From an uncultured Planctomycetota bacterium (lineage in GTDB: Bacteria > Planctomycetota > Phycisphaerae > Tepidisphaerales > Tepidisphaeraceae): a stretch of DNA of 64,000 nt. This document shows positions 8,828-54,269 of the stretch, piece after piece. Under the pieces are notes generated by a model. That model had not been told where the DNA came from. It searched no databases and saw only the letters and a program-made list of their open reading frames with translations. The first letter of the stretch is position 1. Each line of letters starts with the position of its first letter. Position numbers and translations under genes: made by a program. The stretch spans positions 1,568,001-1,632,000 of the forward strand of contig CAWJEN010000006.1 in the NCBI GenBank assembly GCA_963841915.1, in the 5' to 3' direction.

Positions 8828-9994
8828 TCACCGCCGACTCACGCCACGGCGGATGGCGTCTTTGCCGAGTTTGTCACGGATCTTGTCGAGCGTCTGATCG
8901 ACTCGCCGGTCGCGGCCATCAGTGCCGGAATCGAAGAGATCGAGCTGTGGGGCGGCAGGTGGATCACCCAGATCCCCCAGCGAAACGCCCAGAAGTCGCA
9001 GCGGGCGGAGCTCGCGGGTGGCCCAGGCGTCGAAGAGATCGCGGGCGGCGTGCCAGAGTTGCAGAGTCGCGTCAGTCGGCTTGTCGAGTGTCGAGCGGCG
9101 GGTGAAGGTGACGAACTCGCGATACGTGCCGCCGTGACGAAATTTGACGGTGACGCACCGCGACATGCGGCCCGTCCTGCGGAGGCGGCTAGCGACGTGC
9201 TCGACCTGACCCAGCAGGACGTCCCGCAAGACATCTGCGTCACCGATGTCCTGGCCGAATGTGTGCTCATTGCCGATGCCTTTGGCCTCGCGTTCGGGTA
9301 CGACAGGTCGATCGTCGAGGCCGAGCGCGAGTCGCCTGAGACCTTGCCGTTCGGCGAAGAACTCGTCGGGCATGGTCATCACGTCACCGACGGTTTTGAT
9401 GCCGAAGCGAGCGAGCTTCTTCTGGGCCGCCGGTCCGATGCCGGGAAGCGTGCCGATCGGCAGCGGGTCGAGGGTGGCGCGGACGGCGTGCGGCTCGATG
9501 ACCACGAGCGCGTCGGGTTTCCTCAAGTCGCTGCCGAGCTTGGCCAGAAACTTGTTCGTCGCTACGCCGACGCTGCAGTTGAGGTTGACGGTCTGGCGGA
9601 CACGTCGGCGGATATCGGTAGCGATGGTCGGGCCGTCGCCGAACAGGCGTGTGCTGCCGGTGACGTCGAGGTACGCCTCGTCAAGGCTGGCGGGTTGAAC
9701 AAGCGGCGTGTAGCTCCGCAGAATGGCGAAAACCGCATCGCTCACCTCGCGGTACTTGGCGAAGCTGCCGCGGACGATGCGGGCGTGCGGGCACAGGCGA
9801 AGCGCTTCGCCCGTGGGCATCGCGCTGCGACACCCGAAGACGCGTGCCTCGTAGCTGGCCGCCTGCACCACGCCTCTTGGCGGTCGACCGGCGACGAGCG
9901 TCGGCACGCCCCGCAGTGACGGATCGTCACGCTGCTCGACCGACGCGAAGAAGGCGTCCATGTCGACATGCAGCACCGTTCGCGGCCAAGTCAT
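8828..9994 (-). CDS. dinB: DNA polymerase IV (Y family)
   Basis: HVDMDAFFASVE, SYEAR, SLDEAYLD, NKFLAKLGSD. Confidence 0.95.
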   Translation of the reverse strand: MTWPRTVLHVDMDAFFASVEQRDDPSLRGVPTLVAGRPPRGVVQAASYEARVFGCRSAMPTGEALRLCPHARIVRGSFAKYREVSDAVFAILRSYTPLVQPASLDEAYLDVTGSTRLFGDGPTIATDIRRRVRQTVNLNCSVGVATNKFLAKLGSDLRKPDALVVIEPHAVRATLDPLPIGTLPGIGPAAQKKLARFGIKTVGDVMTMPDEFFAERQGLRRLALGLDDRPVVPEREAKGIGNEHTFGQDIGDADVLRDVLLGQVEHVASRLRRTGRMSRCVTVKFRHGGTYREFVTFTRRSTLDKPTDATLQLWHAARDLFDAWATRELRPLRLLGVSLGDLGDPPAAPQLDLFDSGTDGRDRRVDQTLDKIRDKLGKDAIRRGVSRR

Positions 9995-45182: not shown

Positions 45183-46601
45183 ATGGACGCCCCGACTACT
45201 TCACCCGCCGGCCGACCCAATGTCCTGCTGATTCACAGCGATCAGCACCGCTTCGACTGCGTCGGCGTCAACCAGCCGCACACACCCGCCGGGCCGGGTA
45301 GGCTCGTCAAGACGCCCCACCTGGATCGTCTGGCCCAGCAGGGGACGAACTTCACGAGCGCTTACACGCCGATCCCGCTGTGCACGCCGGCCCGGGCGTC
45401 GCTGTCGACAGGTAGCTGGCCGAGTCGGCACAACAGCTGGGTCATTCCCAATACACTCGGCTACCGACCGGCCGACGGGTCGCTGCCGAACCTGTACCGG
45501 TTGTTGAGCGACGCCGGCTACTACGTGGCACATCTGGCCAAGTATCACCAGGAACTGGCCGGTACGCCGACGGATCACGGGGCTGACCGTTTTGAGCCGG
45601 AGACGGCGTACGACCCGTGGCGAGAGCAGCAGGGCTTGCCACCGCGGCCGATGACGAACGGGTTCTTCGGTGAGGTCGACGACATCGAGCCTGAGCAAGG
45701 CCGCATCGCCTGGGGTGCCGACCACACGATGGCTGCGCTGCGCGAGGCCAAGGCTGCGGGGCGGCCTGCGTTTGTGCGGTGGGATCCGAGCGAGCCGCAC
45801 CTGCCGAACGTGATTCCCGAGCCGTGGGCGTCGATGGTGGATCCGGGTGACGTGCCGCCTTGGGCGAGCTTTGCCGACACGCTCAAGAACAAGCCGATCA
45901 TGCAGCGAAAGACGCGGCAGCGGTGGGGCTGCGACGACTGGACGTGGGCTGACTGGCAGCCGATCGTGGCGCGGTATCTGGGTGAGGTGATGTTGCTCGA
46001 TCACCACGTCGGCCGCGTGCTGGCGACGCTGGACGAACTCGGCATGGCTGACGACACGCTCGTCATCTACAGCACCGATCACGGCGACTTCTGCGGCGGG
46101 CACGGCATGACGGACAAGCACTACACGGGCTACGACGACATTCTGCACGTGCCGCTCATCGCCCGCTGGCCCGGCCACCTGGAGGCGGGGGCAACGTGCG
46201 ACCGGTTCGTGATTCACGAGCTCGACCTCGCCAGGACGATCATCGATGCCGTTTTAGGCGAAGCGCCAGAGACCTTCGCCGGCCGCAATCTGATCGACGA
46301 AGCAGCCGGCACGTCGGCGGAGCGGGACGACGTTTTCGTGCAGTACTCCGGCACGCAGCAGGGCCGGTGCGACCAGCGGTACCTGCGGACGCGGCGGTGG
46401 AAGTACGTCTACTGCCCGACAAGCGAAGACGAGCTGTACGACCTTGACGCTGACCCGGGCGAGTTGGTGAACGTGATCGACGAGCCGCAGCACTCGGGGG
46501 CGTTGCTCGAGGTTCGCCAGCGGATGATGACGTGGCTGGCCGAGACGGGTGATCCGCTGACGGGGCCGCTGTGGACGTGGCCGGCGCGGATTCAGCCGTA
46601 G
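45183..46601 (+). CDS. Sulfatase (Cys-type, formylglycine-dependent)
   Basis: PNVLLIHSDQHR, CTPAR (CxPxR), STDHG, ELYDLDADPGE. Confidence 0.93.
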   Translation: MDAPTTSPAGRPNVLLIHSDQHRFDCVGVNQPHTPAGPGRLVKTPHLDRLAQQGTNFTSAYTPIPLCTPARASLSTGSWPSRHNSWVIPNTLGYRPADGSLPNLYRLLSDAGYYVAHLAKYHQELAGTPTDHGADRFEPETAYDPWREQQGLPPRPMTNGFFGEVDDIEPEQGRIAWGADHTMAALREAKAAGRPAFVRWDPSEPHLPNVIPEPWASMVDPGDVPPWASFADTLKNKPIMQRKTRQRWGCDDWTWADWQPIVARYLGEVMLLDHHVGRVLATLDELGMADDTLVIYSTDHGDFCGGHGMTDKHYTGYDDILHVPLIARWPGHLEAGATCDRFVIHELDLARTIIDAVLGEAPETFAGRNLIDEAAGTSAERDDVFVQYSGTQQGRCDQRYLRTRRWKYVYCPTSEDELYDLDADPGELVNVIDEPQHSGALLEVRQRMMTWLAETGDPLTGPLWTWPARIQP

Positions 46602-46663
46602 CGGGTAGTGGACGGTGGCGTCCGAACAGAGTCCTAACTAGCATGGTGGCAGCCGAGCCTGCC

Positions 46664-49600
46664 ATGCCAGACGAGTCGCAACCAAAGTCCAAGATACACC
46701 CGTTCAAGACGAAGCGTCATCACTGGACGCGGGCCAAGGAAGTCGCCGCGTCTGAGGCGAACAAGAAGACGCCCAAGTGGCAGCAGGGTTGGGGCGGCTT
46801 CAAGGACAAGAAGGGCCGGGCCAAAGAATTGCTCGAGATCTCGCCACCACCGGCGATCATCAAGGCCGGCAGCGTCGTCACGTTTGCCGAGCTGTGTTGC
46901 ACGAGCAACTTCACGTTTCTGACCGGGGCGAGTCACCCCGACGAGATCGCCCGTCGGGCGGCGGAGCTCGGCTACGACGCGTTCGGCGTGTGCGACACGA
47001 ACACGCTGGCCGGTGTAGTGCGGGCGCACGTCGAGGCCGAACGCCAGGAGATTCGCCAGGTCGTCGGTAGCCGCGTCGAGCTGTCGGACGGTCGTGGCAT
47101 TTATGTCTGGCCGACGAACCTCGCCGCGTACGGCAGGCTCGCCACACTGCTGACCGTCGGCAAGATGCGGGCCAGCAAGGGCGAGTGCTTGCTTGGCCTG
47201 TGGGACTTGCTGGAGTACGCCGAGGGTCAGATGCTCGGCATCGAGGTGCCGACCGTCATCGACAATGGTTTTGTCGCGATGCTCCGCACGCTGCAGGATT
47301 GGTGCGGCGGGACGAACGCGTTGTCGCTGCTGGCTGCGCGCGACTACGGGCCTGATGACGAACAACGGCTGCGCAACATCGCGCGATTGTCGGCAGAAGA
47401 GCACGTGCCGATGCTGGCGACGAATCGGCCGCTTTATCACGTGCGAGGCAGGCGGTTGATGCAGGACGTCGTCTCGTGCATCCGTCGTGGTTGCACGCTC
47501 GACGAAGCAGGCCTGGCCCTCGAAGCGTCGGCCGAGCGGCACATGAAGGTGCCCGAAGAGATGGACCGGCTGTTCTCGCGTTACCCGAACGCGATCGCCC
47601 GCACGATTGAGGTTGCGTCGCGTTGCCGCGAGTTTTCACTGAACCAGCTCAAGTATCAGTACCCCGACGAGGTTGTGCCCGACGGCTCGACGGCAATGGA
47701 GCACCTCGAACAGCTCTCGCGGGCCGGGCTGCAAGGGCGTTTCCCCGACGGCGTGCCGGAGAAGGTGCGCACGCAGTTCGAGCACGAGTTGGTGCTCATC
47801 GGGGAGTTGAAGTTGCCGCACTATTTCCTGACGGTCGAAGACCTTGTGCGGTGGAGTCGCCAGCAGGGCATCTTGTGTCAAGGCCGCGGCGCGGCGGCGA
47901 ACAGCGTCGTCTGCTACTCGCTGGGCGTGACCGACGCCGACCCGACGCGGATCAACACGCTCTTCGAACGGTTCATCAGCCGCGCCCGCAACGAGCCGCC
48001 GGACATCGATGTCGACTTCGAACACGAACGACGCGAAGAGGCGATTCAGTACCTTTACCGCAAGTACGGCCGTGACCGGGCGGCGATGACGGCCAACGTC
48101 ATCACCTACCGCGGCAGAAGCGCCGTCCGCGAGGTTGGCAAAGTCCTCGGCTTCGGCGCCGACACCATCGACCGCCTCGCCAAAGGTATCAACTGGTGGA
48201 AAGGCGGCCCGGTCGAAGAAGACGAACTCGCCGCCCAGAAGCTCGACCACGCCGACGTTGCTACCGGGCACCTCGTCTACCTCTCGCAGGCCATCCAGGG
48301 ATTTCCCCGACACCTCAGCCAACACCCTGGCGGCTTCGTGCTGACACAAACGCCGCTGCATCAGCTCGTGCCAATCGAGAACTGCGCGATGGAAGCCCGC
48401 ACCGCCATCGAGTGGGATAAAGACGACATCGACGCCCTTGGCTTCATCAAAGTCGACGTGCTGGGGCTTGGCATGCTGACGTGTATGGCCAAGGGGTTTG
48501 AGCTATTAAAAGGCACAAAGGCACAAAGGCACGAAGGCACGAAGGGCTTGACTTCGGACACTCATGAGCGAGATCAAGACATATCGAGATCTGGTGGCGT
48601 GGCAGAGAGCTATGCAGTTGTGTCAGGCGCTTTATTGACAGACGAAGGCAATGCCGGCCGAAGAGCGTTTTGGGCTGACGAATCAGATGAGGCGTGCGGC
48701 CGTATTGATTCCGTCGAACATCGCAGAAGGATTCGGCAGGCAGAGCCGCGCCGACCACTTGAAGTTCCTGAAGATCGCACGCGGATCGTTGATGGAGCTT
48801 CAGACGCAGTACGAACTGGCGTGGTCGATGGAGATGATCCCCCGGAACGAGGAGCTGCATACATTGCTGATCGAGAGCGACCGCATTCTGCAGGGTCTCA
48901 TTCGCAGCCTGATGCGTTAGCTCCGGCATCTGCCCCTTCGTGCCCTCGTGCCTTTGTGCCTTCGTGCCTAGCCGAGGTGCTTCAGCCGCCGGACGATCCT
49001 GTGGTCTTCGACATGATTTGTCGGGCCGACACGATGGGGACGTTTCAGATCGAAAGCCGGGCGCAGATGACGATGTTGCCGAGGTTGCGGCCGCGGTGCT
49101 TTTATGACCTGGTGGTCGAGGTTGCCATCGTGCGGCCCGGGCCGATTCAGGGTGGCATGGTCCACCCCTATCTCAAGCGGCGCAGCGGCGAAGAGCCGGT
49201 GCCGGACTTTTCTGACGGGCCGCTCGGGTGGATTCTGGCCAAGACGTTCGGCGTGCCGATTTTCCAGGAGCAGGCGATGCTGATGGCCGTCCACTGCGCG
49301 GGCTTTTCACCCGACGAGGCCGACGGCCTCAGGCGTGCGGTCACCGGCTTCCGCCGCTTCGGCGACATCGACGACTACGAGTCGAAGATTGTCGAGGGCA
49401 TGGTAGAGAACGGCTACGAGCGTGACTTTGCCGAGCGGTGCTTCAAGCAAATTCAGGGGTTTTCAACCTACGGATTTCCGGAGAGCCACGCTGCCAGCTT
49501 CGCGCTGATCGCGTACGCGAGCAACTACTTCAAGTGCCACTGGCCGGGCGTCTTTCTGGCGGCCATTCTCAACAGTCAGCCGATGGGCTTTTATAAACCG

Positions 49601-50416
49601 GCCCAACTCGTGCAGTGCGCCCAACGGCACGGCGTGACCGTGCTGCCGGTCGACGTGATGCACAGTGACTGGGATTGCACGCTGCCACCGACGCAGGATC
49701 ACATGACGGTCCGGCTCGGGATGAGATGCGTCAAAGGAATGAGGCAGGACGACGCCCAGCGCATCATCGCCGCACGCGGCAAGGGCGTTGTCAGCATCGA
49801 GCAACTTTGGCACCAAAGCCGCTGCTCGGCGAGGGCGATGAAGTGTCTGGCCAAAGCCGACGCCTTCGGCTCGCTCAACGGCGGCCTCGATCGACAGTCG
49901 GCGCTGTGGCACGTGGGTAAACTCCGTGACGACGACACGCCGTTGTTCGATCACGTGCACGAGCCCGAGCCCGTCGTCGCGCTGCCGACGCTCGCGCCGC
50001 TTCGGCATGTATTGGCCGATTACACGCACACAGGTCTGTCGCTCAAGGACCACCCGATGCGATTGCTTCGTGGCGAGCTGCCGGGCGTGACGGTGGCGGG
50101 TGACCTGGCCGACGAGGAGCGGTTTCCGTCCGGTCGGAACGTGACGGTGGCCGGCATCTGCCTCGTCCGCCAAAGGCCCGGCAGCGCCAAGAGCATCACG
50201 TTCCTCACGCTCGAGGACGAGACAGGCATGAGCAACCTGGTCGTTTACCCTAATATCTTCGACCGATGGAAGCGCATCGCCCGCGACAGCCGCACCATGC
50301 TCGTCCGCGGCCGCGTTGATCGGCAGGGCGAAGTCGTGCACGTCATCGCGACGACCTTCGAGTGCCTCGACGGCAAGCTCGACGCGTTGCGTGGCATGTC
50401 GCGAAACTTCCACTAG
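46664..50416 (+). CDS. dnaE2: Error-prone DNA polymerase DnaE2 with an in-frame ~153-aa insertion
   Basis: PHP domain SNFTFLTGASHP; PPDIDVDFEH; KVDVLGLGML; FQIESRAQM; C-terminal SRNFH signature. Start uncertain (46643 or 46664). Confidence 0.95.
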   Translation: MPDESQPKSKIHPFKTKRHHWTRAKEVAASEANKKTPKWQQGWGGFKDKKGRAKELLEISPPPAIIKAGSVVTFAELCCTSNFTFLTGASHPDEIARRAAELGYDAFGVCDTNTLAGVVRAHVEAERQEIRQVVGSRVELSDGRGIYVWPTNLAAYGRLATLLTVGKMRASKGECLLGLWDLLEYAEGQMLGIEVPTVIDNGFVAMLRTLQDWCGGTNALSLLAARDYGPDDEQRLRNIARLSAEEHVPMLATNRPLYHVRGRRLMQDVVSCIRRGCTLDEAGLALEASAERHMKVPEEMDRLFSRYPNAIARTIEVASRCREFSLNQLKYQYPDEVVPDGSTAMEHLEQLSRAGLQGRFPDGVPEKVRTQFEHELVLIGELKLPHYFLTVEDLVRWSRQQGILCQGRGAAANSVVCYSLGVTDADPTRINTLFERFISRARNEPPDIDVDFEHERREEAIQYLYRKYGRDRAAMTANVITYRGRSAVREVGKVLGFGADTIDRLAKGINWWKGGPVEEDELAAQKLDHADVATGHLVYLSQAIQGFPRHLSQHPGGFVLTQTPLHQLVPIENCAMEARTAIEWDKDDIDALGFIKVDVLGLGMLTCMAKGFELLKGTKAQRHEGTKGLTSDTHERDQDISRSGGVAESYAVVSGALLTDEGNAGRRAFWADESDEACGRIDSVEHRRRIRQAEPRRPLEVPEDRTRIVDGASDAVRTGVVDGDDPPERGAAYIADRERPHSAGSHSQPDALAPASAPSCPRAFVPSCLAEVLQPPDDPVVFDMICRADTMGTFQIESRAQMTMLPRLRPRCFYDLVVEVAIVRPGPIQGGMVHPYLKRRSGEEPVPDFSDGPLGWILAKTFGVPIFQEQAMLMAVHCAGFSPDEADGLRRAVTGFRRFGDIDDYESKIVEGMVENGYERDFAERCFKQIQGFSTYGFPESHAASFALIAYASNYFKCHWPGVFLAAILNSQPMGFYKPAQLVQCAQRHGVTVLPVDVMHSDWDCTLPPTQDHMTVRLGMRCVKGMRQDDAQRIIAARGKGVVSIEQLWHQSRCSARAMKCLAKADAFGSLNGGLDRQSALWHVGKLRDDDTPLFDHVHEPEPVVALPTLAPLRHVLADYTHTGLSLKDHPMRLLRGELPGVTVAGDLADEERFPSGRNVTVAGICLVRQRPGSAKSITFLTLEDETGMSNLVVYPNIFDRWKRIARDSRTMLVRGRVDRQGEVVHVIATTFECLDGKLDALRGMSRNFH
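48511..48969 (+). mobile_element. Intervening element bounded by inverted octamer-repeat arrays
   Basis: Left (AAGGCACR)4-AAGGGC at 48510-48547; right GCCCCTT-(YGTGCCYT)~4 at 48932-48969; encloses a four-helix-bundle gene. Confidence 0.8.
48564..48920 (+). pseudogene. Four-helix-bundle protein (23S rRNA IVS protein/Avd-like family), nested in +1 frame of dnaE2, internal TGA
   Basis: MSEIKTYRDLVAWQRAMQLCQALY*QTKAMPAEERFGLTNQMRRAAVLIPSNIAEGFGR...FLKIARGSLMELQTQ; TGA at 48636-48638. Confidence 0.9.
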
Positions 50417-50472
50417 CGGCTCTGACGCAAGAAGTTGCTGCCGCTCGGGCGGGCGCGGTACAACCCCAAGCG

Positions 50473-52284
50473 ATGCGGGACTCGGGGAAGATCAAGGTCT
50501 ACACGACGATGGCCGCAACGGTGTGCGCGTTGACCGCGCTGCCGCTCGGCGTGCTGGGCTACGTCGCGGCCGGTGAGTCGTTGCTCAACGGCTTCTACAT
50601 GACGCTGCAGTTCTTCGCCCTGGGCGATCCTTACCCGGACGCGGCCAAGAACTTCATGCTCCACGTCGCCCGCCTGCTGGCCGCGGCGGCGGTGTCGCTG
50701 GCGGTGGTCATGACGGTGATGTCGCTTTGTGCCGACGTCTCACGACGATACTTTGCCCAAAGCTGGCGCAACCACGACATCGTCTGCGGCCTTGGAAATC
50801 GGGGCATCAACCTTGTGCACCAACTCGCCGCGACGCATCAGTGCGAGAGTGTCAAGGACCGCATCAAGGCCGCGATGTGGGGCGACCGCGCCATCGTCGC
50901 CATCGAACGCAACGAGCAGAACCCGCACCTCCAGACGGCGAGGCGGGCGGGCGCATTGGTCATCGTCGGCGATGCGACCAACCCCAATGTGCTCCACGAC
51001 GCGGCCGTGCGATCCGCGGCTCGGCTGTTCTCGTGTTGCGGCAAGGACGACGACACCGACGTCGCCGTCACCCTGGCGGCGGTGGACGAGGCGGCGAAGT
51101 CGACGCGTACCAAGCAGCTTCACATCTGCCCGGAGATCAACGATCCGACCATCCGCACGCTCATTCGGCAGTACGCCGCCCGGCAGAAACACGAAGGGCG
51201 TTCGGTGCTCGTGCACCCTTTCGACAACAACGAGCTCTCTGCTCGACGCCTGCTCGCCGACTACCCGCTCGACCATGATCGACAGCTCGGCCTTACATCG
51301 TTCAAGCACGCCCAGCTCGTCATCATCGGATTCGGCCCGCTCGGTCAGGCGGTGCTGTTGCAGGCGATGCACGTGGGGCACTTTGCCAATCGCAGTGTGT
51401 TGCGCGTCACGCTGATCGATCCGGACATTGACACACTGTATCGCCGATTTGTGGCGGCCCATCCGAACCTCGGCCGCAGAGGGTTGCAACGGCCCGCACG
51501 CATCCGCCGCCGTGGCATGCACCCGCTGGACCCGCGGCTGTGCATGTTTCTCAACGACATCGCCGACAATCCCGAAGCAGTCGTAACCGTTGTCGTGTGC
51601 CTCGGCGTCGCAACAGAGGCGGTCCGACTGGTCGACCAGACTCGTCGTGCCACTGCGGCGGACAACGTCAGGTTGCTCGTCCGCGTTCCGAACAATCGTG
51701 GGTTCGGCCGCTTGCTTCACCCCGAAAGCGAGGCGAATCGTGAGGTGGACGGCGTCGCCTTTCCAAACGTGTACGACTTCAGCCCGGCCACTGACATCGA
51801 TCCCGCGGCCATTCGCGACGAGCATCATGACAAGCTGGCCCAGGCGATTCACCACGCATATCGCACCAGGACCACATTCGGCGAGAACCTACCCGATGCA
51901 AAGCCGCAGCAGCGGCCTTGGAACGAGCTCGACGAGATCTTTCGCATTTCCAATCGGGCGGCGGCTGACTTTGTGCCGTTACTCTGGCGGACGTTCGGCT
52001 TTGAGATCATCGCCGCAAAGTCTGCGGATCAAAGAAATCGGGTGAAGGAGGTGCCGTCGCACTTGCACGAGGTCATGGCCCAGCTCGAACACGAGCGCTG
52101 GTGCAGCGAGCGGTTCTTGTCCGGCTGGCAGCGCGACGCGGTTCGCGACGACTCGCGTCGGCGGCATCCGGATCTGGTCCCGTGGGCCACGCTCGACGCA
52201 GCGTCGAAGCAGCACAATCGGGACCAAGTCAGCTCGCACGTCACCATTCTCAGCCAGATCGGCTATGTCGTCCTCCCAGCCTGA
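50473..52284 (+). CDS. Membrane protein with 2TM/pore-like segment, two TrkA-N/RCK domains and C-terminal RyR domains
   Basis: TM-YMTLQFFALG-TM; HDIVCGLGNRG...VGDAT; LVIIGFGPLG; LAQAIHHAY...WNELDE...SNR; MAQLEHERW...GW...HPDLVPWATL. Confidence 0.85.
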   Translation: MRDSGKIKVYTTMAATVCALTALPLGVLGYVAAGESLLNGFYMTLQFFALGDPYPDAAKNFMLHVARLLAAAAVSLAVVMTVMSLCADVSRRYFAQSWRNHDIVCGLGNRGINLVHQLAATHQCESVKDRIKAAMWGDRAIVAIERNEQNPHLQTARRAGALVIVGDATNPNVLHDAAVRSAARLFSCCGKDDDTDVAVTLAAVDEAAKSTRTKQLHICPEINDPTIRTLIRQYAARQKHEGRSVLVHPFDNNELSARRLLADYPLDHDRQLGLTSFKHAQLVIIGFGPLGQAVLLQAMHVGHFANRSVLRVTLIDPDIDTLYRRFVAAHPNLGRRGLQRPARIRRRGMHPLDPRLCMFLNDIADNPEAVVTVVVCLGVATEAVRLVDQTRRATAADNVRLLVRVPNNRGFGRLLHPESEANREVDGVAFPNVYDFSPATDIDPAAIRDEHHDKLAQAIHHAYRTRTTFGENLPDAKPQQRPWNELDEIFRISNRAAADFVPLLWRTFGFEIIAAKSADQRNRVKEVPSHLHEVMAQLEHERWCSERFLSGWQRDAVRDDSRRRHPDLVPWATLDAASKQHNRDQVSSHVTILSQIGYVVLPA

Positions 52285-52296
52285 TCGGAGACTTCC

Positions 52297-53190
52297 TTGA
52301 GCACAGCGATAGACGAAGTGGCTCGACAAGCCGCCTCCGAAGAAGCCAGGCAGGCCCTCATCAACGGGCAGCCGTACGAGGCGTTGTCGGCAATCTGCCG
52401 GGCCATCCGGCTGACGCCGCGAACGGCCCAAGGCGACGACGTCCTAGCAAGCAAAGTTGCGGCATTGAAACATTTCGCCGAGATACACCCGCAGACGCAA
52501 GGGACCATCTGGTGTCAGTGGGTCTTGACACTCGCCATTGCCGTACGCCGACTCAGCGACGGGGCGACGGACGTACCCGCCGACGTGAAGGTGCTCGCCG
52601 GCAAGCGTGTGACCGGCCCGATCATGTTTGTGGCTGGCGGTTGCGAGGATGCGCATTCTGTTGAGTGGGCACGCCTCGTCGATCTGCTCGATGGTGCGCT
52701 AGGCGACGTTGAACGCACGCTTGTGTCCGGCGGCACGAGGTCGGGCGTGAGCCAACTTGTAGGCGATCTAATCGAGCGACGCCCGCACTGCCGCCGTGGC
52801 ATGTGCTGGCTGCCGGACGAGATGCCTTCGGACGTGAGTATCGATGAGCGGTACGAGGACCGCCGGGTCAGCGAGGTCGGTGACGGTGCGTCGGGCTTTA
52901 CACCTGCCGAGCCGCTGCGATCTTGGATGACGGTGCTCGCCTCGGGAATTGCGCCGGCCGATGTGGTGCTGCTCGGCATCAACGGTGGTCGCATCTCTGG
53001 CTTCGAATACGAGCTGGCTGCCACGCTTGGCGCTCGCGTCGGACTGCTGCATCCGACGGGTCGCGCGGTGGACGCGCTGCACGCGCAGCGTCATCGCCTT
53101 GAGCAGCCGAGTGTGGAGTTTCTTCCGCTCGAACAGGCTCGAATCGCCGCCTTCGTCTCGCGTGATCAATTCGGAGTCGAGGCATCGTGA
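52297..53190 (+). CDS. SLOG-superfamily nucleotide-binding domain protein with helical N-terminus
   Basis: FVAGG, LVSGGTRSGV, GINGGRISGFE (cf. LOG GGxGTxxE); TTG start after GGAG. Confidence 0.7.
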   Translation: MSTAIDEVARQAASEEARQALINGQPYEALSAICRAIRLTPRTAQGDDVLASKVAALKHFAEIHPQTQGTIWCQWVLTLAIAVRRLSDGATDVPADVKVLAGKRVTGPIMFVAGGCEDAHSVEWARLVDLLDGALGDVERTLVSGGTRSGVSQLVGDLIERRPHCRRGMCWLPDEMPSDVSIDERYEDRRVSEVGDGASGFTPAEPLRSWMTVLASGIAPADVVLLGINGGRISGFEYELAATLGARVGLLHPTGRAVDALHAQRHRLEQPSVEFLPLEQARIAAFVSRDQFGVEAS

Positions 53191-54269
53191 AGCGCATCAT
53201 CAGCATCGACGGCGGTGGCATTCGCGGCGTCTTTTCGCTGCAGATTCTGAAGCGCATCGAGCTGCTTTATCGAGAGCGACACGCCAAAGCCGATCTCGTG
53301 TTGGCGGACGTCATCGACTTCTTCGCCGGGACCAGCACCGGCGCGATTGTCGCGACATGTTTGAGTTGGGGCATGTCAGTCGACGAGGTCGAGCGGCTGT
53401 ATGTTGAAGAGGGCGGGCGCATGTTTTCAAGAGCCGGCGTGCTGGAGCGGTGGTGGTCAAAGTACCGGCCGCACGCGTTGGCGGACATGTTTCGTGAGCT
53501 GTTCCTGGAAGATGACGGTGCACCCGCTGATCTTGGCAGCGGCAAGCTGCGGACGCGACTGCTCGTCGTGATGCGAAACGCGACGACCGGTTCGCCCTGG
53601 CCGATCACGAACAATCCGGAGGCGTTGTTCAACGACGAGTCGCTGGCCGACTGCAACTTGCGGATCCCAATCTGGCAGTTGCTTCGGGGCAGCACTGCGG
53701 CACCGACTTACTTCGAACCCGAGCGCATCGTGCTCGGCAGTCAATGCTTCCTCTTCGTCGACGGCGGCGTGACGCCTTACAACAACCCGGCGATGCTGGC
53801 AGTCCTGAAGGCGACGCTGCCTTGCTACCGGATGAACTGGCCGACCGGCGTCGACAAGCTGCACGTGACCTCCGTCGGCACCGGGAGCTTTCGCAGCGTG
53901 CTCGGGAAAACCCGCGCCAGCCGCCTGCGACGCATCGGCCTTTTGGACCAGCTCAAAGTTCTTCCCAACGCGTTGCTCGGATCGGTCTCTGACCAGCAGG
54001 ACCTGATGTGCCGCGTCATGGGTAACTGCATCCACGGGCACCCGATTGACAGTGAGATCGGCGACCAAATCGAGCGAAGCGACGACGCGCCAACACGCAA
54101 GCAATTCACGTACGTCCGCTACAACCGGCGTCTTGATGTTGTAGACGCGACAACGACGCTGCCGCCGTTGCTCGACGCGACGCTCGATAACCTGGCCCTC
54201 ATTCCGCGGCTGATGGAACTCGGCCACGCGTACGCAGAAGCGTCGGTCGAGGAACGGCATCTGCTGTGA
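53187..54269 (+). CDS. Patatin-like phospholipase
   Basis: IISIDGGGIRG, GTSTG, AAPTYF, VDGG; GTGA overlap with upstream gene. Confidence 0.93.
   Translation: MKRIISIDGGGIRGVFSLQILKRIELLYRERHAKADLVLADVIDFFAGTSTGAIVATCLSWGMSVDEVERLYVEEGGRMFSRAGVLERWWSKYRPHALADMFRELFLEDDGAPADLGSGKLRTRLLVVMRNATTGSPWPITNNPEALFNDESLADCNLRIPIWQLLRGSTAAPTYFEPERIVLGSQCFLFVDGGVTPYNNPAMLAVLKATLPCYRMNWPTGVDKLHVTSVGTGSFRSVLGKTRASRLRRIGLLDQLKVLPNALLGSVSDQQDLMCRVMGNCIHGHPIDSEIGDQIERSDDAPTRKQFTYVRYNRRLDVVDATTTLPPLLDATLDNLALIPRLMELGHAYAEASVEERHLL

Follow-up and report, generated by a model that had tools for sequence, protein, structure and literature searches.

A stem-bounded cassette with a nested gene inside dnaE2 of an uncultured Planctomycetota bacterium

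There is a 459-nucleotide cassette within the gene for the error-prone DNA polymerase DnaE2 of an uncultured Planctomycetota bacterium, and the polymerase reading frame runs through it without a stop codon. The cassette occupies positions 48511..48969 (plus strand) of the window, by which we mean the whole 64,000-nucleotide stretch of DNA that was analysed. It is bounded by inverted repeat arms and encloses a gene in another frame. Judging from sequence comparisons, this observation is real, selected and recurrent. The explanation that we prefer, with a probability of roughly 0.7, is a selfish stem-and-gene cassette of the type found as intervening sequences (IVSs) in 23S rRNA, which resides in a tolerant loop of C-family polymerases and is translated through.

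Under this explanation, DnaE2 would be translated straight through the cassette, which would place some 150 extra residues, as a disordered loop, between two Pfam domains. The cargo would have an internal start of its own on the dnaE2 mRNA and be translated separately. Less firmly, the cassette may persist mostly by inheritance with dnaE2, and its repeated loss may leave gene-less hairpin relics. Occasional moves would probably come about when repeat arms that it has in common with gene-less hairpins at other genomic sites undergo recombination or template switching, a route that would need no transposase and would leave no target duplication. That the cassette moves through exchange between arms, and that a cargo pentamer binds the repeats, are both speculative.

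The host gene, the repeat arms and the nested gene

The dnaE2 gene extends from 46667 to 50416 on the plus strand and encodes 1249 amino acids from the ATG at 46667. Its open frame, which spans 46571 to 50416, is free of stops including the insert, as the earlier note on this DNA had stated. The product scores 1273 bits against the profile NF004225 (cut-off 939), and the aspartates of the PPDIDVD and KVD motifs are invariant in a 45-row alignment. The cassette lies between the DnaE2 blocks LGLGMLTCMAKGFELLK and AEVLQPPDDPVVFDM. Its polymerase-frame peptide is rich in G, R, A, D, S and P and is predicted to be disordered. This peptide matches none of the Pfam families, those of inteins included, in agreement with the earlier remark that intein motifs are missing. 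The same holds for target-site duplications, none of which is found at the outer arm ends in the flanks inspected. An Rfam scan yielded three weak unrelated matches, none of them inside the insert, and no group I or group II intron ribozyme core, and there is no rRNA match at 46000-51000. Neither tblastn nor a TIGR02436 search found a second TIGR02436 gene in this genome (G000), which thus carries one copy only.

On its two sides dnaE2 is bordered by a sulfatase-like gene and a TrkA-N/RyR gene; imuB is not among its neighbours. Positions 50473-54269 of the window hold the gene for this TrkA-N plus RyR-domain protein, a gene for a 297-amino acid protein and a gene for a patatin-like phospholipase. 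There is a weak PF00817 match, possibly imuB, on another contig (G000:C5:268238), and a strong, dinB-like PF00817 match is located at window positions ~9527-9967 on the minus strand.

The left arm (48511..48546, plus strand) is composed of about four AAGGCAC(A/G) 8-mers, and the right arm (48934..48969, plus strand) is its reverse complement, also with about four units. Each arm is 36 nucleotides in length and the two are 94% complementary. The cassette region folds with a z-score of -4.78 as RNA and -5.41 as DNA, with 0 of 100 shuffled sequences folding as well in each case, and the stem dominates the predicted fold. The capacity for a stem of some 35 base pairs, proposed previously, is therefore upheld. 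Arrays of AAGGCACR also occur alone in this genome, at C6:380150 and C6:1648011, and one of these contains at least 12 copies; neither has a partner arm within 1.2 kb. A run of GTCCCCC heptamers begins in the window at ~4382, likewise with no partner arm within 1.2 kb.

A survey of such arms was given 33 loci, one of which missed a motif, leaving 32 for analysis. Their units comprise at least 10 different 7-8-mers, most of which are 8-mers that start with a purine followed by A and G. When each arm was scored against its own partner the median was 28, versus 8 for arms paired across loci. These comparisons show that the two arms stay complementary while the repeat unit changes.

The nested gene (48564..48920, plus strand, 118 codons) lies in the +1 frame relative to dnaE2 and belongs to the four-helix-bundle family TIGR02436/PF05635. 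With X read at an internal TGA, its product scores 111.9 bits for TIGR02436 (cut-off 24) and 112.2 bits for PF05635 (cut-off 33.8). This TGA is codon 25 of the gene (48636..48638, plus strand) in the assembly sequence; at this position all 38 other cargos in the comparison have a sense codon. The cargo of this genome is therefore probably a pseudogene. The family and frame given in the earlier note are correct, but the TGA had gone unmentioned there. Internal stops are present in 2 of 39 dnaE cargos and in none of the other 37. Identity in the cargo frame is 0.64, 0.70 and 0.42 at codon positions 1, 2 and 3, respectively, which is a coding signature; across the aligned loci, this frame is shown to be under purifying selection. 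A word resembling a Shine-Dalgarno sequence precedes 29 of 39 cargo starts, a count with no baseline that we place outside the evidence.

The cargo alignment matches a solved relative, 2GSC, with an E-value of 3.5e-32, and this protein (Xcc0516) is a homopentamer (PMC4990558). The family is also homologous to Avd, an accessory protein of diversity-generating retroelements (DGRs) (PMC10053308). As for the two relationships previously claimed for the cargo, membership in the protein family of 23S IVSs stands, but the link to Avd is only distant. The candidate function of an avd accessory gene was rejected, since the cargo scores 21.9 bits for NF033474 (cut-off 80) and no match to the reverse transcriptase family PF00078 was found in this genome, which is 93.8% complete. 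Genes with a PF05635 match are common, being present in all 41 family genomes searched, a tally that includes G006. We know of no function for them.

Selection for an open host frame across the cassette

Loci for comparison were chosen by similarity of the cargo protein alone. The best 80 of at least 591 loci in genome contigs and the best 80 of at least 595 in metagenome contigs gave a combined sample of 160. There are 24 loci with dnaE flanks, a few of which end at a contig edge on one side: 20 in this same DnaE2 loop, two in other DnaE2 loops and two in DnaE1. At every one of the 24, the cargo is in the +1 frame and the host frame crosses it without a stop. With one duplicate removed, the host frame is open at 23 of 23 dnaE loci versus 5 of 62 GC-matched controls (6 of 129 when all controls are counted). 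Five long non-dnaE host-frame loci, which were recognised because they are open, were left out of both the test and the controls, as were two control duplicates.

The same pattern is evident at codon junctions. A T preceding AA, AG or GA, which a host-frame stop requires, occurs at 0 of 570 junctions in the dnaE loci versus 147 of 1531 in controls. Permutation of synonymous codons predicts 3.7 open frames among 23, and for the copy in this genome gives P = 0.007. The dnaE loci are related to each other, and these counts are thus not independent events. However, four-fold degenerate sites are near saturation (0.366 versus 0.334 expected), and so the open frame reflects upkeep through many substitutions and not shared recent ancestry.

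The host-frame peptide is 29% identical among dnaE copies, close to the 26% of six non-dnaE copies from the same cargo clade, and an alignment of 42 such peptides has no invariant column. This suggests that selection keeps the frame open and does not preserve the sequence of the peptide. Taken across these alignments, the host frame is shown to be under selection to stay open over both the cargo and the arms.

The arms offer a second view of this constraint. In five loci the repeat unit (GGATT-unit arms) contains TAA or TGA. The copies that fall in the host frame read TTA or TCA instead (5 of 5), whereas off-frame copies keep TAA or TGA (14 of 15); the facing arm is unchanged, and one base pair is lost. 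These five loci are close kin and may represent as few as two changes. In these arms an open host frame appears to prevail over pairing of the stem. Because all 24 dnaE frames are open and the arm repeats depart from their unit exactly where it would create an in-frame stop, it is most likely that ribosomes read straight through the cassette.

The earlier note had viewed the element as a transposase-free unit that survives in coding genes either as a translated loop or through removal or bypass at the RNA level. The first half of this proposal agrees with the open host frames, with the occurrence of empty, filled and relic alleles, and with the use of several sites. The second half is unsupported because host-frame stops have been purged throughout the cargo and the arms.

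Alleles at the insertion site and cassettes elsewhere

Orthologs of this dnaE2 include empty, filled and relic alleles. Empty alleles in four genomes of the same genus have 60 amino acids from KVD to RAQ, versus 206 here. The net gain is therefore 146 codons, which implies that about seven host codons were replaced and that the insertion was not clean. The length of 459 nucleotides given previously is right, but the gain of 153 codons is not. More broadly, empty alleles range from 56 to 68 amino acids and relic alleles with a gene-less hairpin from 79 to 145. Most genomes lack the cassette altogether. Among 401 genomes of the class, the filled query had matches in 21, a number that includes this genome, and the cargo was seen in 20; the host-frame peptide served as the query, and the search is thus biased toward open frames. 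A phylum-wide search of 401 genomes at E-values up to 1e-25 returned only G000 and G060, with none outside the class among those searched.

The site corresponds to residues ~574-588 of the E. coli Pol III alpha subunit, between the matches to PF07733 and PF17657, which we take to be the junction of palm and fingers. When the region around the site was modelled from the 45-row alignment, the predicted structure retained the fold of Pol III alpha (TM 0.64 to 2HPI). The insert, residues 299-433 of the model, has pLDDT values below 50, such as a thin alignment also gives. The model is consistent with an insert of some 150 residues that forms a disordered loop and separates the two Pfam domains. 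Gene-less inserts with other types of repeat occupy this DnaE2 loop in L014, L015, L024 and L249, and the loop therefore collects more than one family of insert.

Perhaps there was a single old insertion into dnaE2 that was inherited and lost many times, with little or no mobility at present. We consider this unlikely, though it is the best of the alternatives to our preferred explanation. All dnaE cassettes fall within one cargo clade, one DnaE2 host clade is filled in 13 of its 14 rows, gene-less relics exist, and to the right of the site the empty allele of G051 still resembles its filled relatives. However, five empty alleles near this genome have in common an ordinary loop that simple deletion of a cassette would not restore, and the same cargo clade is found in other DnaE2 loops, in DnaE1, in a kinase gene and at operon junctions. 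The DnaE2 gene of L254 (G634:C4:158000-167500) also argues against a single insertion. It has 1748 codons and contains two full cassettes plus several gene-less inserts, with different units and all in frame.

To explain the filled state on a tree of 55 DnaE2 alleles, 12 changes are required, and well-supported branches force at least five of them. Windowed identity of the copy in this genome resembles empty alleles at the left junction and filled alleles at the right junction, which suggests that the allele is a mosaic. For this genome's group, AU tests of gain against loss are borderline (p-AU 0.047 and 0.060) and the trees are poorly resolved; hence, we make no claim of a recent gain. No close pair of strains with a clean empty and a clean filled site was found.

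A quick tree of 108 cargos contains one clade of 51 (SH-aLRT 96) that unites all 43 dnaE cassettes with eight from elsewhere, including operon junctions and a kinase gene. It is built from 120 columns with most forks open, its controls were filtered for score, GC content and length, and duplicates were left out. The abundance of this clade is biased because the query belongs to it, though the hosts were not chosen.

There are three distinct DnaE1 alleles with a cassette in the same loop (L082, L258 and L259), and L082 scores above the cut-off of the replicative profile PRK05673. In each of their genomes no DnaE1-type copy was found besides the one with the cassette, any other DnaE copies being of the DnaE2 type, where these counts rest on incomplete assemblies (G717, 96% complete; G763, 97%; and a third genome, G795). 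Two further replicative DnaE1 genes (L273 and L275) have gene-less repeat relics in this loop, which could be landing pads or remains of lost cassettes.

Other host genes are known as well. Cassettes in the +1 frame are located in genes for DNA methyltransferases, Eco57I-type enzymes and protein kinases (L087, L093, L101, L118, L056 and L146), where the host frame is also open across the cargo. Among the listed TIGR02436 loci from genomes of the same taxonomic family, of which 30 were fetched, most have such arms, often extending from the stop of one gene to the start of the next. A profile of 42 host-frame peptides matched 868 proteins at E-values up to 0.001. From the best 150 of these, the 68 with at least 300 amino acids were scanned, and they comprise nine DnaE proteins, 28 DNA methyltransferase or restriction-modification enzymes, nine others and 22 with no Pfam match. 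Thus 37 of the 46 long hosts with a Pfam match, again among the best 150 of 868, are DnaE or DNA methyltransferase/restriction-modification enzymes, a spectrum biased by a profile built from 36 DnaE, five methyltransferase and one kinase copies. Short matches to the profile may be shadow ORFs.

A more ambitious and rather doubtful possibility is that these elements form a transposase-free, IVS-type lineage that has become specialised for genes of C-family polymerases and favours enzymes that act on DNA. Such a lineage would find the same loop in DnaE2 and in DnaE1, which are ~30% identical, its +1-frame gene would keep the polymerase readable, and the pentamer on the paired arms together with host DNA enzymes would copy it. 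If true, the element would be a parasite of coding sequence that persists with no need of splicing or an intein.

Possible functions of the stem, less probable accounts and known systems

Read-through does not explain why the stem is retained, and cutting by RNase III is the leading candidate for its role. One possibility is that the polymerase is made by read-through while the stem serves as an RNase III site on untranslated mRNA, where the enzyme would cut the dnaE2 message and free the cargo RNA. This might damp the mutator polymerase or feed the spread of the cassette, and it is compatible with the explanation that we prefer. In the IVS of helix 45 of Coxiella burnetii 23S rRNA there is a comparable build, with a 28-base pair stem, tandem heptamers and an RNase III cut within the stem (PMC4990558). 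An RNase III gene (rnc) is found in the present genome, and arms remain paired across at least 10 repeat units. However, the arms sacrifice pairs to avoid stops, and the cassette is also present in the replicative DnaE1, whose message should be costlier to lose. On balance we think it less likely than a single old insertion that this cutting accounts for the element.

A domesticated cassette, whose cargo protein or loop peptide regulates the polymerase for the benefit of the host, is improbable. Long persistence, purifying selection on the cargo and the strong link to dnaE would fit such a role. The scarcity of the cassette would not, with 20 filled alleles in 401 class genomes, and here the cargo is broken. 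In addition, the loop peptide lacks conservation, and members of this cargo clade also occur in other places.

We give still less credence to the proposal that the insert must be removed by splicing with ligation, or jumped by ribosomes, to yield a working DnaE2. A long stable stem would bring the two host halves together, and arms at operon junctions often span the stop of one gene and the start of the next. Nevertheless, purging of stops would then be needless, yet there are no host-frame stops. The distances bounded by arms fall in all phases (14, 9 and 9 of 32 loci with remainders of 0, 1 and 2 modulo 3), a weak argument given that arm ends are heuristic and a cut could fall within the stem. 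Excision of all 459 nucleotides would leave a loop three amino acids shorter than that of the shortest empty allele seen, and no Rfam intron family is represented. Obligatory splicing or bypass is therefore disfavoured by the comparisons made here. Translational bypass of the T4 gene 60 type involves a stop codon directly after the take-off site and a non-coding gap. An element of this kind was considered and rejected, as the host frame is stop-free here and at all 24 dnaE loci.

A chimeric assembly or a dead dnaE2 can practically be dismissed, because dozens of independent assemblies show this arrangement, the contig has a length of 1.7 Mb and neither the DnaE2 frame nor its catalytic motifs are disrupted, even though no read set covers the insert with its junctions and TGA (the two listed DNA read runs contain 5-6% of its words and, at 80% likeness, give scattered coverage that is mostly from other organisms and bridges neither junction).

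The closest known relatives are the 23S IVSs that carry S23p. Both are ~450 nucleotides long and have a terminal stem (28 base pairs in Coxiella and 36 here) whose loop contains a PF05635 gene; short tandem repeats precede the start codon of this gene, and some copies have a decayed cargo (PMC4990558). Genes for IVPs are described within inserts of both 16S and 23S rRNA (bioRxiv 2024.02.27.582315). The present cassette differs in its location (a protein-coding gene, dnaE2, and not an rRNA gene), in its 8-mer units and in being read in two frames; moreover, it is apparently translated through instead of cut out.

Other systems are less similar. Rickettsia palindromic elements (RPEs) and in-frame MITEs are also in-frame palindromic elements that add a peptide to a host gene, but the cassette is three times longer, has a conserved gene in another frame and tandem-repeat arms that vary between copies, and lacks a target duplication (PMC10969869). 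By the criteria for these elements, it has terminal inverted repeats, while a target-site duplication and many genomic copies are absent. Inteins occur in DnaE and are likewise selfish in-frame inserts in C-family polymerases (PMC3919608). However, the cassette has no intein match, its host-frame peptide is unconserved and its site is a variable loop rather than a conserved motif. Orphan heptamer repeat arrays resemble the arms in being short tandem 7-8-mers beside start codons and inside genes, although a term search of their description finds no mention of four-helix-bundle genes or intervening sequences (PMC4679880). We found no account of such cassettes in protein genes or mRNA in a literature search whose coverage excluded most subscription papers and all supplements.

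The origin and spread of IVSs are open questions (PMC4990558). An IVS-type element in protein genes, including what is apparently the only replicative polymerase of its genome, makes selection on two frames measurable and provides a natural test of the purposes of the stem and the pentamer. The cassettes also mark a loop of Pol III alpha that tolerates at least 150 residues, and they suggest a route by which long overlapping genes could originate. Single-frame annotation hides the nested gene, and DnaE2 entries in databases contain the insert as unexplained sequence; a candidate for a filled allele among them is P0004, named 'Error-prone DNA polymerase [Phycisphaerae bacterium RAS1]'.

There may be other inserts of a comparable nature in this bacterium. 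On the minus strand at G000:C3:46778-49990 (L292), a Y1_Tnp-like domain (PF01797, E 8.8e-7), one of two such matches in the genome, is in frame within a gene that, by its motifs, we presume to encode a valyl-tRNA synthetase-like protein. The domain is flanked by palindromic repeats that read SPDREGG...PLPDGRGS, gene-less copies of which are present in other loops. The locus appears to represent another type of in-frame insert, distinct from the cassette in dnaE2.
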